Source of the DNA: Kofleriaceae bacterium
Lineage (GTDB): Bacteria > Myxococcota_A > Polyangia > Haliangiales > Haliangiaceae
Length of the DNA: 64,000 bases
Assembly: GCA_965215005.1 (NCBI GenBank)
Contig: CBDCCZ010000039.1
Coordinates: 32,001 to 96,000 of the forward strand
Direction of reading: 5' to 3'
The position numbers and the translations under genes are program-made. The notes under the pieces were generated by a model that was not told where the DNA came from, made no database searches, and was given only the letters and a program-made list of their open reading frames with translations. Positions 31,227-42,089 of the stretch are shown piece after piece (the stretch's first letter is position 1; the number at the start of each line of letters is the position of its first letter).

Positions 31227-34200
31227 ATGCTAAAGCTACTGATGCGTAGCTCCCGGACAGAAGCTCTCGGCGGTGGCCGATTCGAGCTCCGCCGCATGCT
31301 GGGCGAAGGCGGCATGGGCGTCGTGTATGAGGCCTACGACCGCGAGCGCCGGTCCCTGGTGGCGCTCAAGACCCTGCGCAGCCTTGAGCCAGATGCCCTG
31401 CTGCGCTTCAAGTCCGAGTTCCGCCGCCTCAGTAACCTCGTGCATCCCAACCTGGTGGCGTTTGGCGAGCTCGTCGATCACGACGGACAGCCGTTCTTCA
31501 CCATGGAGCTGATCCGCGGCACCGAATTTCTCCGCTACGTGCGGCCGGGCCCCGCCGATGCCCCAGCGGCCGAGGGCACCGCCGCCGTCGAGCTCCCCGA
31601 AGATCTACAAAGCACACAAAGCTCGCTGTTCGCGGTCATGGGCGATGGCGACCATTCCGCCAGCGCCCCGCTGCCCTGCCGGCCGCTGCGCGCCGCACGA
31701 TTCGACGAGCTGCGCCTGCGCAACAGTCTCACCCAGCTCGCCTCTGGGCTCGAAGCGCTCCATCAGAGCGGGATGGTCCATCGCGATATCAAGCCGTCGA
31801 ATCTGCTCATCACCGACAGCGGCCGGCTCGTGATCCTCGATTTTGGCCTGGTGACCGATGCCGGCACCGATCGCATCACCGATCAGGACCAGGTGGTTGG
31901 CACCGTCACGTATATGGCGCCAGAGCAGATGCGCTCGGCGGCGGTCGACGCGGCTGCCGACTGCTATTCGCTCGGGGTCATCTTGTACATCGCCCTCACC
32001 GGCGAGCGGCCGTTTTCCGGCAATCTCTATCAAATCCTGCGCAGCAAAGAACGCGAGCTTCCGGCACTGCCAAGCAGCTATGTCGACGGCGTTCCATCCG
32101 ATCTCGAGACGCTTTGTATGGCCCTTTTGTCGTCCACGCCGGCGCAGCGTCCAACCGCGTCAGACGTGCTCGCGAGCGCTACTCGACACCAGCCAGCGCC
32201 GACCGTCAATGCCACCACGAGCATCGGCTTCGTAGGCCGCATCGACGAGCTACGCCTGGTGCGTGAAGCGCTCATGACCAGCCGAAGTCAGCCATGTGGG
32301 TGCGTCTTCGCGGGCGTCTCGGGCATCGGCAAATCGGCGCTGCTGCAGCAGGTTGGCGAGCGCGCCCGCGAGCTCGATGGCGCAGTGGTGTTGCACGGGC
32401 GCTGTTATCAGCGCGAGTCGATGCCGTACAAGGGCCTCGATGAGCTCGTCGATGAGCTCGCCGCCTATCTGCGCGAGCTCGAGCCAGCGGAAATCGACCG
32501 TCTCATTCCCAACGATGCCGGACTGTTGCCGCGAGTGTTTTCGGTGCTGCGGCGGATTCCGGCGCTCCGCGCGAGCGAGAGCGTGCAACCCCTCGGTGGT
32601 GCAGGACACGAGCTCCGCAGCGCGGCGTTCGCAGCGATGCGCGAGCTACTCCGCCGCCTCGCCGATGGGCGCCCCCTGGTGCTGATCATCGACGACGTGC
32701 AGTGGAGCGACGCCGATAGCCTGGCGCTGCTCAGCGAGCTTCTCAAAGCACCCGAAGCCCCGGCAGCGCTGCTGGTGCTCGCGCTGCGCACCGATGCCGA
32801 CAGCCCGACGCTCACCCTCGAGACCCTGCAGCGCGCGCTTCCCATCGAGCTCCACCGAATCGATCTCGATAACCTCTCGCTCGCCGACGCTCATGCGCTG
32901 ACGCAGCGTTTGATCTCCGAGCATGGCGGCCGCATCGACGCTGCGGCGATCGCCGTCGAGTCGGCGGGCCATCCGCTGTTCATCGATTCCTTGGTGCGTT
33001 ACCGAATCGCTCAACCCGACGAAGAACGTCCGGTTAAGCTCGAAGAAGCCCTGTGGTGGCGAATTCAACGCCTAGACGCCGCAGCCCGCGAGCTACTCGA
33101 GCTGGTGTGCGTGGCCGGGCGTCCTGTCGAACGAGCAACCGCCGCACGGGCCACCAGCCCCGACCCCGCGCAGCTGGATCGGCTCTGCGGGCTCCTCGCG
33201 AGCGCGCATCTCATGCGTCAAGGCGGCGCCGGCGATAGCGGATTGCTCGAGCCATTCCACGACCGGGTTCGCGCCGCGGTGGTCCATCACCTCTCGGAAA
33301 CGCAGCGTGCTCACTGGCATGGCCGGCTGGCGCTAGCGCTGGAGAGCACCGGCTCAGTCGATGTCGAGCGACTTGGCGATCACTGGCGAGCCGCGGGTGA
33401 AGCGCGTCGCGCTGGAGAGTATTTCGAGCGCGCTGCGATCGAAGCCAAAGACGCGTTGGCGTTCGATCGCGCCGCCAGATTGTTTGCGGCGTGTCTCGAG
33501 CTCGCCAGCAATATCACCAGCGAGCGTGAGCGCGAGCTGCGCATCGCCATGGGCGACGCGTTGGTGGCGGCTGGACGCGGCTACGCTGGCGCCGAGCAAT
33601 ATTTGCGAGCGGCCAGCGGCGCCAGTCCCGCGATGGGGCTCGAGCTGCGCCGGCGGGCGGCGGAGCATCAAATTCGCAGCGGGCACATCGACGCCGGCAT
33701 GCGCGATCTCGATGCGGTGCTCCGCGAGGTCGGCCTCACCCTGCCGCAAACGCCACGGCAGGCGCTGGCGCATCTGCTGTGGCGACGGTTGCGGCTCAAG
33801 GTGCGCGGGCTCAGATATCGGCTGCGTTCGAGCGACGACTTGACGCCAAGGCAGCGCACGCGAATCGATGCGTGTTGGTCGGCGGCCGCGTCGCTGGCGC
33901 TGGTCGACCCGCTGCGCGGCGTGTTGTTCCAGTCGCACAACCTGGCGCTGGCCCTGCAATGCGGCGAGCCGTATCGGGTTGCGCGCGCCCTCGCCGTGGA
34001 GGCGTGCTTCGTCTCCAACGCCGGTCCGAAGAAACGCAATCGCTGCCGAGAGCTGTGTGAGCAATCGCGCGCGCTAGCGAACTCGATCGAGGATCCCCAC
34101 GCGCTGGCGTGGGCACGAACCGCCGAGGGCGCGGTAGCGTACTTGTTCGGCGACTGGCGCGCAGCTGTGGAAATCTGCCGCGACGGCGAAGAGAGGATGC

Positions 34201-35012
34201 GTCGCGTTGCCGGCGGCACGACCTGGGAGATCAACACTCTGCAGCTCTTTGGTCTGGCTTCGTCGCTCATCACCGGCGACTTGCAGACCCTCTACGAGCT
34301 GCTCCCCGTGCGGCTGCGCGAGGCTGAAGATCGGGGCGATCTTTGGGCCGCTTTCAACCTGCGCACCGGCCACGTCAATGCCGCGTGGCTAGCGCGCGGC
34401 GACGTCGCCCGCGCGCGCCGCCTTGCCGGCGAAGCGGCCAGCAACTTGTCGACACGGGGATTCTTCGTACATCACTATTACGACCTGCTGGCGCACACGC
34501 AGATCGCCTTGTACGAGGGCGATGTCGCGGCGGCGCGCCAGCTCGTTCTCGCGCACTGGCCAGCATTTACCGGCTCCATGCTCACGCGGGTGCACCAAGT
34601 GCGCGCGTTTGCCTGGCACTTGCGCGCGCGCACCGCCGTTGCCGCTGCCGCCTACGCTAGCGCCGCCGAGCAGCCGCCGCTATTGCGCGAGGCGCGACAG
34701 ATCGCCAAACGACTCCGGCGTGAAGGCGCCGCGTGGTGCACGGCGCTCGCGCTTGCCATCGAAGCCGGAGCAACCACGGTGAGCGGCCCCGCAGAGGCCG
34801 CTCGCGCCGCTCTGGCAACCGCACAACACGCCTTGGAAGCCGCCGACATGCAGCTCCACGCCGCCGCGTTGCGCCACCTGGCAAGCGCTCACTACGACGG
34901 CGAGGTCGGCACCCGGCTCGGCGCCGATACCCACGAGTGGTTTGCCGAGCGAAGCGTGCCCGAGCCGGCCAAGCTCGCGTTCATGCTGGTTCCGGGCGCG
35001 CGTCAACGCTGA
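31227..35012 (+). CDS. Second Ser/Thr kinase-AAA/STAND ATPase-TPR protein, paralogue of 21845-25660 (start may be 31242)
   Basis: LGEGGMGVVY, VALK, HRDIKPSN, DFG, YMAPE; GVSGIGKS, LIIDDVQWSD, GHPLF. Confidence 0.93.
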   Translation: MLKLLMRSSRTEALGGGRFELRRMLGEGGMGVVYEAYDRERRSLVALKTLRSLEPDALLRFKSEFRRLSNLVHPNLVAFGELVDHDGQPFFTMELIRGTEFLRYVRPGPADAPAAEGTAAVELPEDLQSTQSSLFAVMGDGDHSASAPLPCRPLRAARFDELRLRNSLTQLASGLEALHQSGMVHRDIKPSNLLITDSGRLVILDFGLVTDAGTDRITDQDQVVGTVTYMAPEQMRSAAVDAAADCYSLGVILYIALTGERPFSGNLYQILRSKERELPALPSSYVDGVPSDLETLCMALLSSTPAQRPTASDVLASATRHQPAPTVNATTSIGFVGRIDELRLVREALMTSRSQPCGCVFAGVSGIGKSALLQQVGERARELDGAVVLHGRCYQRESMPYKGLDELVDELAAYLRELEPAEIDRLIPNDAGLLPRVFSVLRRIPALRASESVQPLGGAGHELRSAAFAAMRELLRRLADGRPLVLIIDDVQWSDADSLALLSELLKAPEAPAALLVLALRTDADSPTLTLETLQRALPIELHRIDLDNLSLADAHALTQRLISEHGGRIDAAAIAVESAGHPLFIDSLVRYRIAQPDEERPVKLEEALWWRIQRLDAAARELLELVCVAGRPVERATAARATSPDPAQLDRLCGLLASAHLMRQGGAGDSGLLEPFHDRVRAAVVHHLSETQRAHWHGRLALALESTGSVDVERLGDHWRAAGEARRAGEYFERAAIEAKDALAFDRAARLFAACLELASNITSERERELRIAMGDALVAAGRGYAGAEQYLRAASGASPAMGLELRRRAAEHQIRSGHIDAGMRDLDAVLREVGLTLPQTPRQALAHLLWRRLRLKVRGLRYRLRSSDDLTPRQRTRIDACWSAAASLALVDPLRGVLFQSHNLALALQCGEPYRVARALAVEACFVSNAGPKKRNRCRELCEQSRALANSIEDPHALAWARTAEGAVAYLFGDWRAAVEICRDGEERMRRVAGGTTWEINTLQLFGLASSLITGDLQTLYELLPVRLREAEDRGDLWAAFNLRTGHVNAAWLARGDVARARRLAGEAASNLSTRGFFVHHYYDLLAHTQIALYEGDVAAARQLVLAHWPAFTGSMLTRVHQVRAFAWHLRARTAVAAAAYASAAEQPPLLREARQIAKRLRREGAAWCTALALAIEAGATTVSGPAEAARAALATAQHALEAADMQLHAAALRHLASAHYDGEVGTRLGADTHEWFAERSVPEPAKLAFMLVPGARQR

Positions 35013-35017
35013 GATGG

Positions 35018-36709
35018 TCAGCGAACCTCACGCCACAGACCAACCGGCAATAGATAGTCGCGAACCGCGCGCAGGTGAACTTCGACTCGCGGACTGGTTG
35101 CGTCGGGCGTGAGCCGCCGCAACCGCAGCGTGAGATACGGATCGTCGGCAAAGGCCTGGCCGTGCTCGCTCATCAACTTGCGGACTGCCGCGCGGAGCTC
35201 GATTCGCGGCTCGGCGGCGATGCCGGTAGCGACGATGACGTCAGCCGCTGCGGTGCGGTTCCATCGCAGCTGCCAGCCGTAACGCTGCTCCAGGGTCCGC
35301 AGCCCTGCCATCACCTCCAGATCCTCGAATCGCACCTCATAGCCATTGTCGACGCGCGGCTCATCGAAGCCGACCATGCGCTCGAAGACGTAGCGCAATA
35401 CCTTGTTACGCCGGGCCATGAGCACGTCCGTCACCAACGCCGCAGCCTCCTCTCGCTGATAGGCCGCCGTGCTCACCGCGGCTTCGACGTGCTCACGCTG
35501 AAAGTGCGCCATGATCGAAGCAGCCCAAAATTCGTCCTCGGCGGTGACTTCGTCGAAGGCGGGATTGGGCATGATCGGGCGCCAGCGCTGGGGATCGAAG
35601 TACTCGGACTCGAAGATTCCCACTGATCGATAGGGGCTGCGTTGCGCGCCCAGCCAGTAGGGATACCTCAACCCGAGGCCAAACATTCTCTTGAACACCT
35701 GGCTCCAGTCGATGCGGTATTCGTAGCCTTCACCGGCGTGCTTCTCGCGATCGCCGACCGCTCCGAGCGAGTCACCAAAGTCGATGAGGTAGTGGCGCAC
35801 GTAGCCGAGATTTCGCTCCGCATCGACCTCGATGAACGCATCGATGGTGTTTTGGCTGCGGGTATCGGTGTTGTTTAGCCAAGCGGAGAAGAGTCGCAAT
35901 CCGCGGAGGCTACGGCGTCGCTCGTGCGGAATGTTGTCGTTGGGGTCGTCGGCGCGCACGCCGCGATAGCGAAACGGCCCCACGGCACGCCCAGGTACCT
36001 GCCGGCTAAACAACGCATGCACGCGGCCTTCGCTGTTGGCGTTGAGCTGCAGGATGAGGACCCCGAGCGCTTCCTGGGTGAGCGGAATCGTGCGGTTGTA
36101 GTCGTCCACGGTGGTCGCGTTACTGGCCAGTCGCAGCCGCGACAGGTCGAGCTCGAGCAGATATGTCTCGGGCACCCAATACCCGGCCGCCCACACCAGC
36201 CGCGAGGCAGTCATCTCAGCGCCGGTGGTCAGCTGCGGAAAGCCAGGAGGGTCGAATTTGACGAACCAGACCACTCCCTGGGAGTCGCGCACAACGGTGC
36301 CAGGCGTAGCGCCCTCAGTCTTGCCGCTGATGACGAGCAGCGAACCAGGGGCGGGACCAAATCCGGTGTTTGGCCCCTTCGCGACTGCCTCTGGGGTCAA
36401 CACGTAGCGGCCCATCCGATTCGTAAACCACGTCGAGTCGGCAACCTCACCAAAGGCGTTCACATCGAGCGCGGGCCGCGACTCGGTGGCGGCATCGATC
36501 CAGCGCGCCGGGCTCAGTAACTTCGCGAACGGCACCACAGTGGTGTGCAGCGCGGTGTTCCACCAGTCGGTAGGGATTCCGCTGGTGATCGGTTGCCGGT
36601 GCAGCAGCTCCACCGGCGCACGCTGATAGATCTCATCGTGCGGGGATTTCTTCCAGGCGGGAACGCACGCAGCGACAGTGGTAATGAGCAGAGCTAGAGC
36701 GAGCCGCAT
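35018..36709 (-). CDS. Lipoprotein with an atypical protein-kinase-like (HipA/PI3-4 kinase-like) domain
   Basis: Lipobox TVAAC; GKTEGATPG...WFVKFD (Gly loop and Lys), GAEMTASRLVWAAGYWVP (helix C Glu), WLNNTDTRSQN (catalytic loop), YLIDFG. The start overlaps the upstream stop (TGATG). Confidence 0.7.
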   Translation of the reverse strand: MRLALALLITTVAACVPAWKKSPHDEIYQRAPVELLHRQPITSGIPTDWWNTALHTTVVPFAKLLSPARWIDAATESRPALDVNAFGEVADSTWFTNRMGRYVLTPEAVAKGPNTGFGPAPGSLLVISGKTEGATPGTVVRDSQGVVWFVKFDPPGFPQLTTGAEMTASRLVWAAGYWVPETYLLELDLSRLRLASNATTVDDYNRTIPLTQEALGVLILQLNANSEGRVHALFSRQVPGRAVGPFRYRGVRADDPNDNIPHERRRSLRGLRLFSAWLNNTDTRSQNTIDAFIEVDAERNLGYVRHYLIDFGDSLGAVGDREKHAGEGYEYRIDWSQVFKRMFGLGLRYPYWLGAQRSPYRSVGIFESEYFDPQRWRPIMPNPAFDEVTAEDEFWAASIMAHFQREHVEAAVSTAAYQREEAAALVTDVLMARRNKVLRYVFERMVGFDEPRVDNGYEVRFEDLEVMAGLRTLEQRYGWQLRWNRTAAADVIVATGIAAEPRIELRAAVRKLMSEHGQAFADDPYLTLRLRRLTPDATSPRVEVHLRAVRDYLLPVGLWREVR

Positions 36710-38214
36710 CAGAGCTCCTTGCCGATCGATATCTTGAACTCCAGTCCCTCCGGCGAGCGGCCAAGGGTGACATCGAGGCCGCGTTTGGTCTCGTGAGCAC
36801 CGCGGAGGCCCACGCCATACGAGTAAAGAAACTCGTCAACGAGTCCACGGGGCGTGTCACCGATGCCGCCGACATCGACGAATACCAACGTTGAGAGGAT
36901 GACGTTGGTCGTCATGTATTCCCACACTTGATACTGATATTCGAGATTACCCCACCAACCCCAGTTGCCGCGAAATCGGTCTTTGGCGTAGCCGCGCAGA
37001 TGATTTTCGCGACCTAAGGTGACCAACTGGTGAAGCGGTACCTCTCCATCGCGGGTGAAGGGCTGCGCAACAGCACTGCCGAGACGGACGACGAGCGTGC
37101 GATGGCGCGGCAGGACCGCAATGTACCTGGCGTACGCGATGCTCGCGGTGAGCGCGTTGAGGTCGGCGCCACCGACGTCGGAAGTGATGCCTCCGGCGAG
37201 GCTGGCGAGGGCACCACGGGATGGGGTGCCGACGACATCGCGACTGTCATATAGCGCCACCAATTGCAGCTGCGGATAGTTATGGGTGTCGCCAAATCCG
37301 GGCGGGACGCCAGCGACGTCACCCACCATGAAACCGGGGATGTTTCGGTCGGTGCCGGTGGTGAGCGTTTGCCGACGGAAGCCGAGCTCGACCGAGCCAA
37401 ATACGTCTTCGACACCGAGTCCAGTGAGATCTAGAGCCGCGACGGCCAACAGAGACTCGCTGCGCAGCACTCGGCGGTCGTCGAACTCGGTGTCCGCTCC
37501 GATGCCAAACCAACGCTGGTTGCCATCGAGCTCCCACTCGGCCTCGGCCGCAAGCTGCCGACCCTCGAGGCGCGGATACGTGTCTTGATAGCGCCCGCGC
37601 AGCTCGTAGTCGCCGTCGAAGCGATACAGCCCGCTGATGTCGACGACGTTGTCTTGGCCAAATAGCGAGTTCAACGACAGGGTCGCGCCGAGCCCGAGAC
37701 CGTCGCCAAGGCCGAGCTTGAGGCGAGGCGACAGCTCGATCTTGCCGCCGTAGAACTCGGTCAAGTCTTTGTAGCGCTTGTCGAGGCGATAGCGCTCGGT
37801 GGTGATAACGAGCAGTCCGATGGGCGAAAACGCCACCTCGATCAATCGCTCGGGGAGCGCCAGGAGGTGCCAGACGAGCTCAAACGGCGGCCGCGGCTCA
37901 TGCCACACATTCGTGGTGAGCTCAGCAGGCGGTGTATCGGGTCGCGTCCGCGGCGCCGGCTGCTCGAGCCAGCGCGGGTCGGAGACATCGGCTCCCGTGG
38001 TCGGCGCAGGTGGCGCGGCATCGCGCGGGGACGGCGGGCTTGCGGCGGGCGGGTTGGCCGTGGCAGGAGCCTGTGCGTCAGAATCGACGGCAGCCGGCGG
38101 CGCCTGCTCCGGCGGCGCCTGCTCCGGCGATTGCGCGACGACCTGTGGCGCGACGCCAAAAATGAATACGCCCAAGGCGGCCGCAACCCGCGCCTTACCG
38201 ACCGATGATGGCAT
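36709..38214 (-). CDS. Omp85 (BamA/TamA) family outer-membrane beta-barrel without recognisable POTRA domains
   Basis: Signal peptide, Pro-rich linker, amphipathic beta-strands, YDSRD...PSRG, loop-6 motif LRGYAKDRFRG, FVDVGG and YSYGVGLR. Confidence 0.85.
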   Translation of the reverse strand: MPSSVGKARVAAALGVFIFGVAPQVVAQSPEQAPPEQAPPAAVDSDAQAPATANPPAASPPSPRDAAPPAPTTGADVSDPRWLEQPAPRTRPDTPPAELTTNVWHEPRPPFELVWHLLALPERLIEVAFSPIGLLVITTERYRLDKRYKDLTEFYGGKIELSPRLKLGLGDGLGLGATLSLNSLFGQDNVVDISGLYRFDGDYELRGRYQDTYPRLEGRQLAAEAEWELDGNQRWFGIGADTEFDDRRVLRSESLLAVAALDLTGLGVEDVFGSVELGFRRQTLTTGTDRNIPGFMVGDVAGVPPGFGDTHNYPQLQLVALYDSRDVVGTPSRGALASLAGGITSDVGGADLNALTASIAYARYIAVLPRHRTLVVRLGSAVAQPFTRDGEVPLHQLVTLGRENHLRGYAKDRFRGNWGWWGNLEYQYQVWEYMTTNVILSTLVFVDVGGIGDTPRGLVDEFLYSYGVGLRGAHETKRGLDVTLGRSPEGLEFKISIGKEL

Positions 38215-38217
38215 CGC

Positions 38218-39372
38218 TCACTCCGGTCGCGGCGGGTTTGGCTCGATGACCGTGGTATCGAAGACGTCGCCGTCGAGGTTCACTGCACGCAGCGTCATGC
38301 GCTTGTCAGCGACATCCACCAGCACGTAATGCGGCTCCGTGCGCGCCTGCGCGGTGAACGCTCTCGGCGTGACAGGGCGAATCGGCGCCCCCGCCGATCC
38401 GCTCACGATATACGTGGTGCCGTCTAGCGGCTTGGTGCGCTCGTAATCGTGATCGTGCCCGGTGAGCACCAGCTCGACGCCATGCTTCTTGGCCAAGCCG
38501 GCAATCGGCCGTTGCACTTGCTCATTCGACCCGTGCCACCCCGATGAGTAGGGTGGATGGTGCAGCATCATCACGATGAACATGTCCTTTTTAGCGGCCT
38601 CGCGCAGGACCCGATCGATGTAGCCGAACTGGGCGCAACCGTCGCGGCACTCGATTCCACTATCGACGGCAACGAAACGCACGTTGCCCCAGTCGTGATA
38701 GAAGTACCGGCGGCCGTTGGTCCAGCGATCGAGCAGCCAATAATGGCCGAAGTAGTCGCGGGCTCCCATGTCGTGGTTGCCGATGGCGGGGATGATCGGG
38801 GTCTTGACCAGCAGCGGTCGCTCGATCTGAAAAAAGCGATCCCACTGCGCTTTGATCCCGCCGCGCTCGACCATGTCACCGGTGTTGATCACCACGTCGA
38901 GCTCCTCGCGCGCCATTGCCTCGATGAGATCGCGATGAACGCGGTGACCATTGCGAGTGTCGCCAAATGCTGCGAAGCGCAGCGGCTGACCCGCGGCCAC
39001 ACCGAGTCGAAAGGTGTACGCTTGCGTGGCCCCCTTCTGCGAGACCACCCGATAGCGGATCTTGGCGTGCGGTGGCACGTCGGTGAGCTTGGCTATCCAC
39101 AAATCGCCATCGGGCTCGGCCTCGACCTCGACCGCCGTCGACGGGTCGGCGTCGGCAAGCCACCACTCCACGCGGGGCGCGCTAATCAGCGACGCTTTGA
39201 GCGCGACATAGGCGGTGGTCTCATCGCCTACTAGAATGTATGGACCGGTGGTGAACAGTGCCGGCTCGGGCTCACTCCAGCCGGCGCGCTCCTGCGGAGG
39301 AACGCCGCACCCCGCGGCAAACAATGCGAGCCCAGCGCAAACGGCAAACCATGAACCAGTGCGATACTGCAT
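38218..39372 (-). CDS. Purple-acid-phosphatase-like metallophosphoesterase lipoprotein (start may be 39414)
   Basis: Lipobox FAAGC; N-terminal FN3-like part; calcineurin-like motifs FGD, TGDMV, GNHD, HHPPYS and GHDHDYER. Confidence 0.9.
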   Translation of the reverse strand: MQYRTGSWFAVCAGLALFAAGCGVPPQERAGWSEPEPALFTTGPYILVGDETTAYVALKASLISAPRVEWWLADADPSTAVEVEAEPDGDLWIAKLTDVPPHAKIRYRVVSQKGATQAYTFRLGVAAGQPLRFAAFGDTRNGHRVHRDLIEAMAREELDVVINTGDMVERGGIKAQWDRFFQIERPLLVKTPIIPAIGNHDMGARDYFGHYWLLDRWTNGRRYFYHDWGNVRFVAVDSGIECRDGCAQFGYIDRVLREAAKKDMFIVMMLHHPPYSSGWHGSNEQVQRPIAGLAKKHGVELVLTGHDHDYERTKPLDGTTYIVSGSAGAPIRPVTPRAFTAQARTEPHYVLVDVADKRMTLRAVNLDGDVFDTTVIEPNPPRPE

Positions 39373-39436: not shown

Positions 39437-40474
39437 ATGCGGTTGCACGCGCTCACGGCAGGTTTTCTCACGCTGCTCGTCTCGATGAGCTGCGGGGCAC
39501 CGCAGCCGCGCGAGGCTCAACCTGCCGTTGACGGCACCTCGCCGCAGCGCGAGCCTGCCGGCTGCAAGGCCGGCGACGTCGCCGACTGCGTCAGCCGCGC
39601 ACGAGCGCAATGCGAAGCCAGTCGCGCAACCGTTTGGGAAGTTCACAGCGACGGCTTTCCCGATCTGGTCGTGGCACCGCCGCTGGTGCGCGCGCGCTAT
39701 CTCGGGTCCACGATCTATTCCGTCGACGGCCAGCACTGGCTGGCCTGCGTCGAGCAGTGCCCCGAGTCGTCATCGCCGCAGCCGAGCTGCTTTCCGCTGC
39801 ATGCACCGATCTCGATGATGCTGCGCTACGACGCCACCTGCCGCGTACAGGATCGCGCCGATGAGCCATGGCAGGAGCAGCTGGCTCGCCAGCTGGTCGT
39901 CGACTGCGGCGCCGCGCCGAGCTCGATTCGCTACGTGCCGGCGTACGAAGCGGTGGCGCGAGCGCTAGTCGAGACGGGGGTCATCGCCGCCGACTCACCG
40001 CTAGCTCGGCTCGGCGGCTTGCCGGTCGCAATGGTCTCCGAGGGCGCGCCAGTGTTCGAGGTAACCGAGGTGACTCCGGCGAGCTGCGATGCCTTCGCGT
40101 TGCCGCCAAGCGCCACTATCGTGTCCTCGCCGGCGGCCCATCGCGAGCTGGGGGAGCTGTATCCGCGGTTTCGCGCCCGCGCCGACGCGGCCGCCGCGGC
40201 GTTGACGGAAACCCGACTCGGCGAAGCGGAGGATGCGTTGCTCGCCCAAGCGAGCTCGGACCTAGCCGAGCGCTGCGCCGGCGCTGGCCTTGCAGCCAGC
40301 AGCGAGGCTGAGCTGCAACGATGTTTGCGCACCCAACCCGACATCCGCGGCTGGATCGCAAACCTGCTCGCCGACCGTCTTGCTCAGGCCCGGCGCGGCC
40401 TTTCGGACGAGCTGACCGAGCTGCGCCGGCGCGAGTACCTCGGGCCGCTATGCCGCCACTTCTCAACGCCGTAA
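39437..40474 (+). CDS. Cys-rich hypothetical lipoprotein
   Basis: Signal peptide ending VSMSC, several Cys, coding-like codon bias; no family recognised. Confidence 0.65.
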   Translation: MRLHALTAGFLTLLVSMSCGAPQPREAQPAVDGTSPQREPAGCKAGDVADCVSRARAQCEASRATVWEVHSDGFPDLVVAPPLVRARYLGSTIYSVDGQHWLACVEQCPESSSPQPSCFPLHAPISMMLRYDATCRVQDRADEPWQEQLARQLVVDCGAAPSSIRYVPAYEAVARALVETGVIAADSPLARLGGLPVAMVSEGAPVFEVTEVTPASCDAFALPPSATIVSSPAAHRELGELYPRFRARADAAAAALTETRLGEAEDALLAQASSDLAERCAGAGLAASSEAELQRCLRTQPDIRGWIANLLADRLAQARRGLSDELTELRRREYLGPLCRHFSTP

Positions 40475-40649: not shown

Positions 40650-40706
40650 TAAGTGACTGATTTAGAAGCCGGCAACTCGGTAGGCCAGCCTGGCTCTGCC
40701 CTTGCA
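40650..40706 (+). promoter_or_regulatory. Putative sigma-54 promoter (40691-40706) with an upstream IHF-like site (40650-40662)
   Basis: TGGCTC-TGCCC-TTGCA; upstream TAAGTGACTGATT has one mismatch to YAANNNNTTGATW. Confidence 0.6.
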
Positions 40707-40721
40707 CAATGGCGCCTCCGC

Positions 40722-42089
40722 ATGCCTGTACAGAACTCGTTCTCGTGGATGTATCGCGGCGCCCTCCTCGCGCTGGCCCTCACCTCCGCCTCGGGTTGCC
40801 TTCTCGGCGACACCGGCGCCTACGAGCCGATGGACGACAGCGTCGACGCCGGCATCGATGGAGATTCTCACGATCATCATGACGACCTGCTCGTGGATCC
40901 GAATGAGCCTGAGCCCGATGTGCTGTACGCGCCGTCGCTCACGGTGGACCAGGTGATGTGGAACTACTGCAGCACGGCGCCGGTGCGCGGACTGTCCGAG
41001 CAGATCGCCGAAGAAATCGAATGCCTTCGCCCCGGCACGATGGCCTCGCTCAGCGGCATTCCGGGCGTCTCGGTGAACTCCGGCACGTTGCCGTACCTGC
41101 AGCGCGAAGCAGCCGCGAGCCTCGGACGGGTTACGGCCGGTGGCGGCACGATCAGCATCAACTCGGGGCTGCGCAGCACCGCGCAGCAATACATTCTGTA
41201 TCGCTGGGATCAGCTCAATCGCTGTCGCCACGTCGTCATCACCGCGGCCCCTCCAGGCGGCTCGAATCACGAGTCGGGGTTGGCCATCGATGTCTCCGAT
41301 GCCTATAGCTGGCGCTCGCGGCTGGGGAGCCGCGGGTTTCGTTGGTTTGGCAGCGGCGACGCGGTGCATTTCGATTACGTCACCGGCGGCACCGACATTC
41401 GCCACTTGGCCGTGCAGGCGTTCCAGCGGTTGTGGAACCGCAACAACCCCGGTGACCGCATCTCCGAAGACGGCGACTACGGCGGCACCACCGAATCGCG
41501 CCTCAAGCGCGCACCGGCTGCGGGGTTCGCGCGCGGCCCGAGCTGCTCACCCATGCCATCGGCCAACGCCGCCGCCATGGAGGTCTTCTGGCAACGCGAG
41601 CGCGACGGCAGCTACGCGCTCCGGGCATTGGCGCCGCAGCAGGTGAACCGCGTCGAATACTATGTCGACGGCTATCCGGTTGGCGAAGCGACGCGCGGCG
41701 CGGAAAACAACTTCCCAACCAGCTATCGATTCACCTCCAATGGCAGCGAGCGGCGCTTCGAGGCGCGCGGCTTCGACGGCAGCGGCGAGCTCGTGGCCCG
41801 CGGCGTGGGTCTGATGGACGTGACCGACGGAGCTGCTATCTACATTCGCCAAATGGGCAAGCGGCTGTATGAGATCGGCATGGAAGGCGCGCCTGAAGCG
41901 ATCGCGGCGATCGAGGTCGATGCCGACCAATGGACCCTCACGGACAGCGTCACCGGCCAGGCGCGCTCCACGCGGAAGGCGGTTCGCTCGACGTTCACGA
42001 TGCTCGGCGAGCGGACGTTCAAGATCACCACGTTCAACGCCGACGGCTCGTCGCGCGGCTCGCTCTACCGAACGTTCACCCTCGAGTAA
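40722..42089 (+). CDS. M15-family Zn D,D-carboxypeptidase-like lipoprotein with a peptidoglycan-binding-like segment and C-terminal beta domains (start may be 40749)
   Basis: INSGLRSTAQQY, SNHESGLAIDV and DAVHFDY (M15 Zn ligands); AFQRLWN...EDGDYGGTT; lipobox SASGC. Confidence 0.85.
   Translation: MPVQNSFSWMYRGALLALALTSASGCLLGDTGAYEPMDDSVDAGIDGDSHDHHDDLLVDPNEPEPDVLYAPSLTVDQVMWNYCSTAPVRGLSEQIAEEIECLRPGTMASLSGIPGVSVNSGTLPYLQREAAASLGRVTAGGGTISINSGLRSTAQQYILYRWDQLNRCRHVVITAAPPGGSNHESGLAIDVSDAYSWRSRLGSRGFRWFGSGDAVHFDYVTGGTDIRHLAVQAFQRLWNRNNPGDRISEDGDYGGTTESRLKRAPAAGFARGPSCSPMPSANAAAMEVFWQRERDGSYALRALAPQQVNRVEYYVDGYPVGEATRGAENNFPTSYRFTSNGSERRFEARGFDGSGELVARGVGLMDVTDGAAIYIRQMGKRLYEIGMEGAPEAIAAIEVDADQWTLTDSVTGQARSTRKAVRSTFTMLGERTFKITTFNADGSSRGSLYRTFTLE

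Follow-up and report, generated by a model that had tools for sequence, protein, structure and literature searches.

An operon of three closely spaced open reading frames on the minus strand, at positions 35018-39372 of the window (the whole 64,000-nucleotide stretch of Kofleriaceae DNA that we analysed), has in our judgement an even chance of encoding an ATP-fed periplasmic module that writes and erases phosphorylation at the outer membrane. The genes, all on the minus strand, specify a metallophosphoesterase lipoprotein (gene 1, 38218..39372, 384 aa counted from the ATG), a POTRA-less Omp85 barrel protein (gene 2, 36709..38214, 501 aa) and an atypical kinase-fold lipoprotein (gene 3, 35018..36709, 563 aa). 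Their coordinates bear out the tight packing described in a first-pass annotation of this DNA, with a 3-nt gap between the phosphoesterase and barrel genes and a TGATG overlap at the barrel-kinase junction, and because the identical phosphoesterase-barrel-kinase order was found at 21 other loci the arrangement is not due to chance. Export signals of the three proteins were assessed by eye and with a regular expression. The genome contains four copies of the kinase, each paired with a barrel gene (4/4), and one paralogous operon, on contig C38, includes an NTT gene that is lacking from the window operon.

Features of the three proteins

The product of gene 2 is a member of the Omp85 superfamily, as had been proposed. 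It matches PF01103 with 43.1 bits (cut-off 24, E 5e-11), and its AlphaFold2 model (mean pLDDT 82) contains 16 long strands, which form a β-barrel over residues 159-497 (36724..37740, minus strand, from the strand list of the model). The (V/L)RG(F/Y) motif of loop 6, a hallmark of the superfamily, is present as LRGY at 406-409, with Arg-407 in 87/87 and Gly-408 in 83/87 aligned relatives. Domain searches gave no match to a POTRA domain or to DUF5982 in this protein, the model showing a disordered linker and helices where the former would lie, and with no periplasmic POTRA we rejected assignment as a BamA/TamA/TpsB-type Omp85. The earlier description of a mere Pro-rich linker ahead of the barrel was correct as to the linker and the missing POTRA domains, but overlooked a helical segment (112-152). 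Residues 1-97 (37924..38214, minus strand) comprise a signal peptide and a disordered Pro/Ala-rich linker, judged by pLDDT (below 50 over most of residues 20-84) and composition (20 Pro, and 51% Pro+Ala, in residues 28-97). Residues 98-152 (37759..37923, minus strand), the predicted kinase-docking segment, form an extended strand and then helices at 112-128, 130-141 and 144-152 before strand 1. The noNterm subfamily is defined by a barrel with no N-terminal extension in front of it; the window protein has neither a POTRA nor an enzyme domain, but this docking segment of ∼55 residues precedes its barrel.

Gene 3 gave no significant sequence match in Pfam, NCBIfam or the PDB. Its AlphaFold2 model (pLDDT 94.7) is predicted to adopt a bilobed kinase fold like that of Fam20C, PI4K and HipA, the best Foldseek matches being Fam20A/Fam20C, PI4KIIα, CtkA and HipA. 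Every match from rank 1 to rank 11 was to Fam20 or PI4KII (E 2.8e-4 to 1.4e-3, probability 0.82-1.00); these are weak matches, with TM-scores to the query of at most 0.29, six of them with E up to 0.001. The nearest named Atlas clusters, which serve as a lead only, were Fam20C (22% of members), HipA_2 and LepB_N at 0.82-0.83. We equated, by analogy, the catalytic-loop-like NNTDTRSQN (279-287) and the DFG (310-312), which together span 35774..35875 on the minus strand, with the corresponding kinase motifs. By motif and position in the secondary structure, Lys-151 would be the β3 lysine, Asp-282 and Asn-287 the catalytic residues and Asp-310 the metal-binding residue. Among 87 relatives these residues are conserved in 79, 82, 80 and 83, respectively, and Lys-130 in 81; the αC-type Glu-165 is Glu in only 40/87 and Asp in 33. 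The fold match and the conserved catalytic residues thus uphold the original view of gene 3 as kinase-like, and we infer kinase activity and regard it as the candidate writer. None of the 32 family members scanned matched the Fam20C or CotH families of Pfam, HipA_2 matched 2/32 (best E 0.074) and HipA_C 1/32 (E 0.039); with no match over the Pfam cut-off among these 32, assignment to Fam20C, CotH or HipA proper was rejected. A lipobox-like cysteine, Cys-15, is invariant in the 32-row alignment of Myxococcota-type sequences.

Gene 1 encodes a calcineurin-like metallophosphoesterase. It matches PF00149 with 65.9 bits (cut-off 21.5, E 8e-18), has the metal-ligand motifs D, GD, GNH, H and GHxH (GDTR at 137, GDMVE at 165, GNHD at 198, HHPP at 271 and GHDH at 305) and begins with a lipobox-like AAGC at 19-22 (Cys-22). 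Its closest solved relatives are purple acid phosphatases, which are defined by the tyrosinate iron ligand of GDxxY. With GDMVE in this place, and no tyrosine at the position in the sub-clade motifs printed, it is not a strict purple acid phosphatase. We consider it the candidate eraser, likely to reverse the kinase.

The barrel-kinase pair and its phosphatases

The barrel and the kinase are a near-obligate pair. A barrel gene accompanies the kinase in 78 of 79 genome loci, across many phyla, and 95 of the 99 kinase genes examined have an Omp85 gene immediately upstream. Of the four exceptions, one is a joined ORF, two are the second kinase of a tandem and one is on a short contig. In a natural fusion (P0149, n = 1) the kinase stands on the N-terminal side of the barrel, in the position expected of POTRA domains. 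Multimer modelling, which the first-pass annotation had called for, gave the barrel-kinase complex a score of 0.75, compared with 0.00 for the best of three controls; this mark is attained by 116/157 solved complexes and 2/215 mismatched pairs, counts that are only rough for the alignments used here. The runs share at least 96% of contacts, with a partner pLDDT of at least 87. On the barrel protein the predicted kinase contacts are residues 98-147, 368-372 and 426-444, which correspond to the N-terminal segment and short periplasmic-side turns (strands counted from the N-terminus), the helical segment before strand 1 (112-152) providing the main docking site. The kinase is hence predicted to dock on the periplasmic face of the barrel.

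The phosphatase is optional and exchangeable across the family, so that the fixed three-part system first envisaged was not supported. A metallophosphoesterase gene is present in 15 of 79 loci, a PAP2 gene in 19, either in 32 and both in two (∼3.6 expected if independent, which does not demonstrate mutual exclusion), and no phosphatase was seen in 47/79 within the DNA examined. PF00149 and PF01569, which are unrelated phosphatase families, both came to occupy this slot, and the kinase-linked metallophosphoesterases were drawn from at least two lineages in the tree. Closer to the window the association is tighter, and the expectation that the phosphoesterase is conserved beside homologous kinase/Omp85 pairs was confirmed for close pairs: of the 24 informative loci in this kinase sub-clade, the window not counted, 21 have it, 13 of them coming from one genus, and the three loci without it all belong to one genus. 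One well-supported branch of a quick tree is made up of 21 kinase-adjacent phosphoesterases.

Proposed ATP supply and mechanism, and competing readings

We propose that the kinase-fold lipoprotein, docked on the periplasmic face of the barrel, would phosphorylate an envelope substrate, and that the phosphoesterase lipoprotein would act on the product and so likely reverse the reaction. The likely source of the ATP is export through an NTT-type carrier, the gene for which lies in the sister operon of this genome and which would run ATP-out/ADP-in exchange at the inner membrane; the substrate may sit at the inner leaflet or pass the barrel. We slightly favour a lipid or glycolipid over a protein as this substrate, since the slot of the phosphatase is also occupied by genes of the PAP2 lipid-phosphatase family and the fold resembles that of PI4K. 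At the level of sequence, the protein families, the near-obligate pairing, the recurrent gain of phosphatase and NTT genes and the intact catalytic-type residues are established; each part comes from a known superfamily, the novelty lies in the module, and its mechanism is proposed from sequence and models. We found no characterised bacterial counterpart of the whole module in the literature.

A PF03219 gene for an NTT/TLC ATP/ADP-translocase-like protein, overlooked in the first-pass annotation, is the most frequent accessory gene, present in 32 of 79 loci and not seen in the other 47 within the DNA examined. It lies within 10 kb of the kinase in 23/35 kinase-positive genomes (0.44 expected), and a strong stand-alone-type NTT occurs in 31/35 of these compared with 37/266 kinase-negative genomes. 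Because the genomes are related to one another, these counts and those given above overstate independence. Of the NTT loci in kinase-negative genomes, 20 were retrieved, and eight of these adjoin other apparently exported nucleotide-using enzymes (four kinase-like-Omp85 fusions, one kinase-like lipoprotein and three PPDK_N proteins with signal-like N-termini); among the ORFs scanned at the remaining 12 there was no exported kinase-like neighbour. The kinase-linked NTTs can be aligned with ATP/ADP carriers of known structure (E 1e-38 and 1e-32) and have a basic residue (Lys or Arg) at the K155 position. In the vicinity of the nucleotide-binding lysine K527 the KxKxK motif is kept (13/15). Both lysines of the SKSAKY-type stretch are replaced, and the substrate may therefore not be ATP.

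The same gene associations would fit a scavenging route that needs no ATP export, in which nucleotides or organophosphates from outside (from prey lysate, for example) enter through the barrel and are bound or interconverted in the periplasm by the kinase-fold protein, with phosphate released by the phosphatase and the NTT bringing nucleotides into the cytoplasm in its customary direction. This route, which we consider unlikely but not far-fetched, draws on the resemblance of the phosphoesterase to purple acid phosphatases and on the characterised NTTs, all of which, in the text available from PMC5381601, come from parasites or organelles and import nucleotides. It sits poorly with the conservation of catalytic-type residues in the kinase and with the different exported ATP-binding-domain enzymes, with no barrel match, that adjoin the same NTT clade (L140, L150-L152), for which a supplier fits better than an importer. 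The barrel also retains the loop-6 RG motif, loop 6 being in BamA and TamA part of the lid that closes the barrel. The barrels of those two proteins are described as closed in the part of PMC4104836 consulted.

The barrel-kinase complex may also be real and serve something other than ATP-driven phosphorylation with a matched eraser, using another donor (polyphosphate, lipid pyrophosphate or NAD) or gating or regulating the barrel, with the phosphatase a loosely co-regulated neighbour. This would agree with phosphatases that are optional and of several origins, with the replacement in the linked NTTs of two lysines of the classic ATP/ADP carriers and with the transport of NAD by one NTT lying outside the classic clade (PMC5381601, in the same portion). 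It is made improbable by the Lys, Asp, Asn and DFG-Asp positions, which 79-83 of 87 relatives retain, unlike a decayed pseudokinase, and by the recruitment of both PF00149 and PF01569 and the fusion of a phosphoesterase in Bacteroidota. Surface display or secretion, an earlier suggestion in which the barrel is a dedicated translocon flipping both lipoproteins outward, would solve the supply problem with extracellular ATP and accords with the lipoprotein-like nature of both window enzymes and with the lipoprotein genes beside Leptospira noNterm Omp85, for which available text of PMC11358297 discusses a translocase role, but is very doubtful given the close contacts at a predicted periplasmic interface, the lack of POTRA domains, the lipobox-like pattern in only 32/87 kinases (in Acidobacteriota the signal peptide is mostly a plain one without the lipobox Cys), the inner-membrane NTT link that it leaves unexplained and the extracellular dome that the same paper argues covers such barrels.

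On the favoured reading, the phosphorylation module, we tentatively extend the proposal, at somewhat below an even chance, to free-living bacteria of many phyla, in which a dedicated NTT clade would carry ATP out to the periplasm as fuel for exported enzymes, the commonest a barrel-docked kinase with an exchangeable phosphatase. This logic would have been built twice with two kinase families, in the present operon and, in fused form, in the Metallo-Omp85 of Bacteroidota, and would be a bacterial counterpart of the Fam20C/lumenal-ATP arrangement. The periplasm is regarded as ATP-free, and envelope phosphorylation is expected to rely on other donors. The barrel-kinase pair, the relatives of ATP/ADP carriers and the interchangeable phosphatases make that assumption testable with three or four purifiable proteins. 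They also offer a function for the orphan NTT genes of free-living bacteria, to which the available text of PMC5381601 assigns none, and for the noNterm and Metallo Omp85 subfamilies of PMC4104836, as far as these are described there.

Relation to known systems

Among the closest known architectures is Metallo-Omp85, which shares a PF00149 domain and an Omp85 barrel with the window operon (Heinz and Lithgow 2014, PMC4104836, from the part consulted). The search for Bacteroidota fusions suggested earlier found phosphoesterase, kinase-like domain and Omp85 barrel in one chain, unlike the three genes here, each with its own export signal. The barrels are related (hhalign 99.75%, E 3e-27), our barrel profile scoring Metallo-Omp85 at a median of 78 bits versus 42-44 for two longer barrels of BamA/TamA type in the genome studied here. 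The Metallo-Omp85 middle region carries a kinase-like D[WF]DRH motif in 44/44 and appears from its sequence to be an unnoticed kinase-like domain; the main text of PMC4104836, in the part consulted, calls the Metallo domain a metalloprotease and does not contain the word kinase. The kinase domains show only a distant resemblance (hhalign 19%, E 0.001, confined to the N-lobe; best cross-HMM E 0.002 in the set of 44), and the Metallo-Omp85 phosphoesterases form a long branch separate from the window type in the quick tree. Because both domains belong to different families, we reject the simple split of Metallo-Omp85 that the first-pass annotation had inferred in favour of a parallel build. The window contributes this evidence and the dedicated phosphoesterase sub-clade.

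The noNterm barrels, reported as similar to Metallo barrels (PMC4104836, same part), include Leptospira paralogs that share the POTRA-less 16-strand barrel and adjacent lipoprotein genes; the main text of that work, in the part consulted, does not mention a kinase (PMC11358297). The window family differs from them in having a helical docking segment at the N-terminus and in its constant pairing with a kinase. PlpD is a single chain with lipase and POTRA domains. It likewise holds an enzyme domain on an Omp85 barrel, as the part of PMC11116518 consulted describes, and, unlike the window module, has no kinase, phosphatase or carrier. The kinase-linked carriers share PF03219 with the NTT/TLC transporters of PMC5381601 (in its available text) but occur in free-living bacteria, with two classic lysines replaced. 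Fam20C and Fam20A, kinases of the secretory pathway, share the atypical kinase fold by Foldseek and also work outside the cytoplasm. Fam20C relies on ATP transported into the lumen. The spore-coat kinase CotH is, in the part of PMC12189002 consulted, another extracytoplasmic protein with an atypical kinase fold. In contrast to Fam20C and CotH, the gene 3 kinase is linked to a barrel of the outer membrane and to a phosphatase.

The operon and its conserved barrel-kinase core

The three genes lie on the minus strand in the arrangement given by the first-pass annotation, encoding a metallophosphoesterase lipoprotein (gene 1, 39372-38218; PF00149, 65.9 bits), an Omp85 barrel (gene 2, 38214-36709) and a kinase-like lipoprotein (gene 3, 36709-35018), with ORF coordinates that give the 3-nt gap and then the TGATG overlap. 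The GC content of the region (∼0.64-0.66) is like that of the remaining window. A plus-strand gene for a Hanks-type Ser/Thr kinase with an AAA domain (31227-35012) converges on the operon, the stops lying 5 nt apart; a cluster apparently of this type occurs near 7 loci of the window kinase's sub-clade (kinases with ≥42% identity to it), but that family is abundant in these genomes. An unannotated lipoprotein-like gene (39437-40474, plus) diverges from the operon with start codons 64 nt apart, and a VanY-like D,D-carboxypeptidase-domain protein is encoded at 40653-42089 (plus).

The claim that gene 2 is Omp85-like is borne out by its PF01103 score (43.1 bits, cut-off 24), by the 16 long strands (residues 159-497) of its AlphaFold2 model, built from an 87-row alignment, and by the loop-6 motif LRGY, of which R407 is present in 87/87 aligned relatives. 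The model begins with a signal helix and a disordered Pro/Ala-rich linker and contains no POTRA domain, as had been proposed, but it also has helices at 112-152, so the N-terminal part is more than the linker that the first-pass annotation saw.

Searching Pfam, NCBIfam and the PDB with the window kinase sequence produced no significant match, nor was there a plasmid match; those close homologs that bear names are annotated as hypothetical proteins from Kofleriaceae and further Myxococcota. The model of gene 3 is confident (pLDDT 94.7), and the kinase fold is assigned from a single Foldseek run in which Fam20A, Fam20C and PI4KIIα occupy ranks 1-11 and CtkA, Rio2 and HipA fall lower, mixed with some unrelated matches (best E 2.8e-4, low TM-scores). 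Among 87 relatives, K130 is kept in 81, K151 in 79, D282 in 82, N287 in 80 and D310 in 83, and position 165 carries Glu in 40 relatives and Asp in 33; by analogy, we take the conserved residues to represent the glycine-loop region, β3 lysine, catalytic loop and DFG. The family comprises 1545 cluster representatives at E ≤1e-30 and 4540 at E ≤0.001, and the matches listed include Myxococcota, many Acidobacteriota, Zixibacteria, Latescibacterota, Calditrichota, Eisenbacteria, Krumholzibacteria, Gemmatimonadota, Marinimicrobia, Nitrospirota and one Cytophagia-labelled assembly. The lipobox Cys is invariant in 32 rows of Myxococcota-type kinases, the lipobox pattern is matched by 32/87 kinases of the wider set, and an ordinary signal peptide is found in most members from Acidobacteriota; judged from these sequences, export is conserved in the family and lipidation is not. 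One alignment used to look for longer relatives (1085-3095 aa) found none, which is weak evidence; a separate search gave the 1000-aa fusion.

Of the 99 kinase genes examined, 95 have an Omp85 gene immediately upstream; the four others comprise a joined ORF, the second kinase of a tandem (two cases) and a short contig. The genome of the window carries four barrel-kinase pairs, among them C12:35528-40231, with a different metallophosphoesterase gene divergent from the barrel, and C58:34895-39219, with a divergent TraB/GumN-family gene. In a single database record, P0149, the kinase precedes an entire barrel in the chain; as this is the opposite of the operon order, the protein is not a read-through. 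The predicted complex of genes 2 and 3 scores 0.75, whereas the best of three controls scores 0.00; the score mark is reached by 116/157 solved complexes and 2/215 mismatched pairs, counts that are only rough for our own alignments. The runs share at least 96% of contacts with a partner pLDDT of at least 87. Neither protein has a significant match among PDB sequences, and we know of no solved complex of like kind. On the barrel, the predicted interface covers residues 98-147, 368-372 and 426-444, which by strand count from the N-terminus correspond to the segment on the periplasmic side and to the short turns that follow strands 10 and 12, so that the model places the kinase under the barrel and supports binding between the two.

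Multiple copies of the module are common: kinases in tandem after a single barrel, or side-by-side barrel-kinase pairs, occur at L100, L117, L209 and L231 and at L045, L083, L092, L167, L200, L245 and L250. A joined ORF at L034:1236-3968 runs from a shortened barrel into a shortened kinase, possibly through deletion or assembly error.

Phosphatase neighbours

Gene 1 carries the metal-ligand motifs together with a lipobox-like Cys22 but lacks the tyrosine that defines true purple acid phosphatases. As a conserved neighbour of the kinase and barrel, the phosphoesterase holds its place in the sub-clade but not family-wide. The phosphoesterase-barrel-kinase order recurs in 21 of 24 informative distinct sub-clade loci, not counting the window (L037, L045-L048, L054, L158, L159, L243-L247 and L249-L256, 13 of them from one genus); L237 and L242 were dropped as duplicates of L045 and L048, and L109, L160, L196, L239 and L248 are too short for a call. 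The three loci without it (L238, L240, L241) belong to one genus. The sub-clade occurs in 21/147 genomes of the order, two of which, unpublished, are left out of the neighbourhood counts. In a quick tree, in which the L037 row is without some motifs, the sub-clade phosphoesterases form one branch (21 rows, support 99), and other kinase-adjacent phosphoesterases fall elsewhere, forcing at least two changes.

Family-wide, the best 79 loci, from at least 567 confirmed stretches, include a metallophosphoesterase in 15, a PAP2-family phosphatase in 19, either in 32 and both in 2. Mutual exclusion of the two types was rejected, ∼3.6 loci with both being expected. The same profiles, built from the neighbours themselves, find 7 metallophosphoesterase genes and 1 PAP2 gene in the 6.2-Mb genome of the window, so that ∼2% or less is expected per 15-kb locus on this one-genome background. 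A metagenome set is in agreement with the genome set: its 79 loci, mostly short, include 14 with a phosphatase and 17 with an NTT/TLC carrier (ATP/ADP-translocase-like, PF03219), and among the 36 that span ≥7 kb these numbers are 9 and 14. Three linked PAP2 proteins (L099:8435-9403, L122:4620-5471, L055:8446-9249) have signal-like N-termini, two of them ending in an alternating stretch and terminal aromatic resembling a β-signal, and such proteins may lie in the outer membrane.

The NTT carrier and a possible mechanism

The first-pass annotation missed a fourth part, the NTT carrier, whose genes occur in 32 of the best 79 kinase loci. A paralogous operon in the same genome (C38:106982-111691; L001:6983-11692) has NTT, barrel and kinase lipoprotein abutting in that order on one strand; this NTT is the genome's sole stand-alone one, three longer ones lying elsewhere. 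A joined ORF of NTT and barrel, possibly with a lost stop, is seen at L097:602-3124. Across 301 genomes drawn without selection from the phylum (their relatedness makes the counts dependent), an NTT match at E ≤1e-45 was found in 33/35 kinase-positive versus 85/266 kinase-negative genomes, and at E ≤1e-70 in 31/35 versus 37/266. The NTT lies within 10 kb of the kinase gene in at least 23/35 genomes versus 0.44 expected, a lower bound with 38 further matches uncounted.

Twenty NTT loci were sampled from 19 of these 37 kinase-negative genomes. In four (L141, L148, L149, L153), the gene immediately downstream of the NTT encodes a ∼900-aa kinase-like-Omp85 fusion that lacks a phosphoesterase domain, three with a PAP2 match; PAP2, NTT-HEAT and cNMP-binding genes are close by in most. 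One is near a kinase-like lipoprotein. Three have, near a stand-alone NTT, PPDK_N (ATP-binding) proteins of ∼1000 aa with signal-peptide-like N-termini (L150:10262-13258, L151:10191-13127, L152:924-4019), with beta-lactamase-like genes between the two in L150 and L151; these may be a further exported system that uses ATP. In the other 12 loci, no neighbour of these kinds turned up in the scanned ORFs. A third exported kinase-like family is represented at L140:5050-6657, adjoining an NTT, and L130:77-1057, the latter with a weak PI3_PI4_kinase match (E 1.6e-5).

Together these data indicate that the barrel-kinase module is real and conserved, and they make a mechanism plausible from sequence and models. 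We give about an even chance to a periplasmic write/erase module, in which the kinase, predicted to dock under the barrel, would use ATP exported by the NTT to phosphorylate a substrate at the inner leaflet or at the barrel, and the phosphoesterase would reverse this. The substrate is marginally more likely to be lipid-like, given the PI4K-like fold and the PAP2 genes that occupy the same position. Scavenging coupled to import is an unlikely role for the same parts, and other chemistry, or a phosphatase only loosely linked to the pair, is a shade less likely again. Surface display of the lipoproteins, an option first raised alongside the operon, is improbable beside a model that puts the kinase under the barrel.

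Comparison with known systems

The literature covered, which excludes most subscription journals, describes the parts and yielded no paper on the barrel-kinase(-NTT) module. In its available text, an oral-microbiome kinase preprint (10.64898/2026.09.18.752743) describes a cytoplasmic PAP2-linked kinase, SEAE1; that main text is without 'BamA' or 'phosphoesterase', and its supplements, with 20 families, could include the fused kinase domain. A Riemerella review (PMC13595192) mentions a T9SS-secreted metallophosphoesterase, which might be a Metallo-Omp85. The linked NTT can be aligned with solved ATP/ADP carriers and retains the KxKxK motif as well as a basic residue where K155 stands, whereas the two lysines of the SKSAKY-type stretch are replaced; in the plant carrier, according to the accessible portions of PMC3306366 and PMC4256464, K155 and K527 are important for nucleotide binding, the K527 counterpart not being pinned in the alignment.

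The ∼900-aa fusions led us to a 1226-aa Fulvitalea protein with an N-terminal PF00149 domain, a middle region that we read as kinase-like from its motifs (GGGQQT, LRSVEK, DWDRHDDQW and PRDRD), and a barrel; the neighbourhood of its gene (L154:1733-9499) includes genes for an HD-domain/Pycsar effector and for an adenylate/guanylate cyclase. The middle region has 5002 matches among 8000 candidates, PF00149 and PF01103 occurring together in many of the 120 listed. This is the architecture of the 'Metallo' Omp85 subfamily of PMC4104836, the available part of which mentions no kinase for it. The fused kinase family was not found in the genome of the window. Profile comparison of operon and Metallo-Omp85 scored the barrels at 99.75%, the phosphoesterases at 98.9% and the kinase domains at only 19% (6.6% with hhalign on four fused sequences only, where the kinase motifs were misaligned), and the fused phosphoesterase domains form their own long branch. 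The kinase score and the tree led us to reject the initial reading of the operon as a simple split of the Metallo-Omp85 fusion. Hence, although the two share the same kinds of parts and a related barrel, their kinase and phosphoesterase lineages differ, and by sequence the operon is a parallel build.
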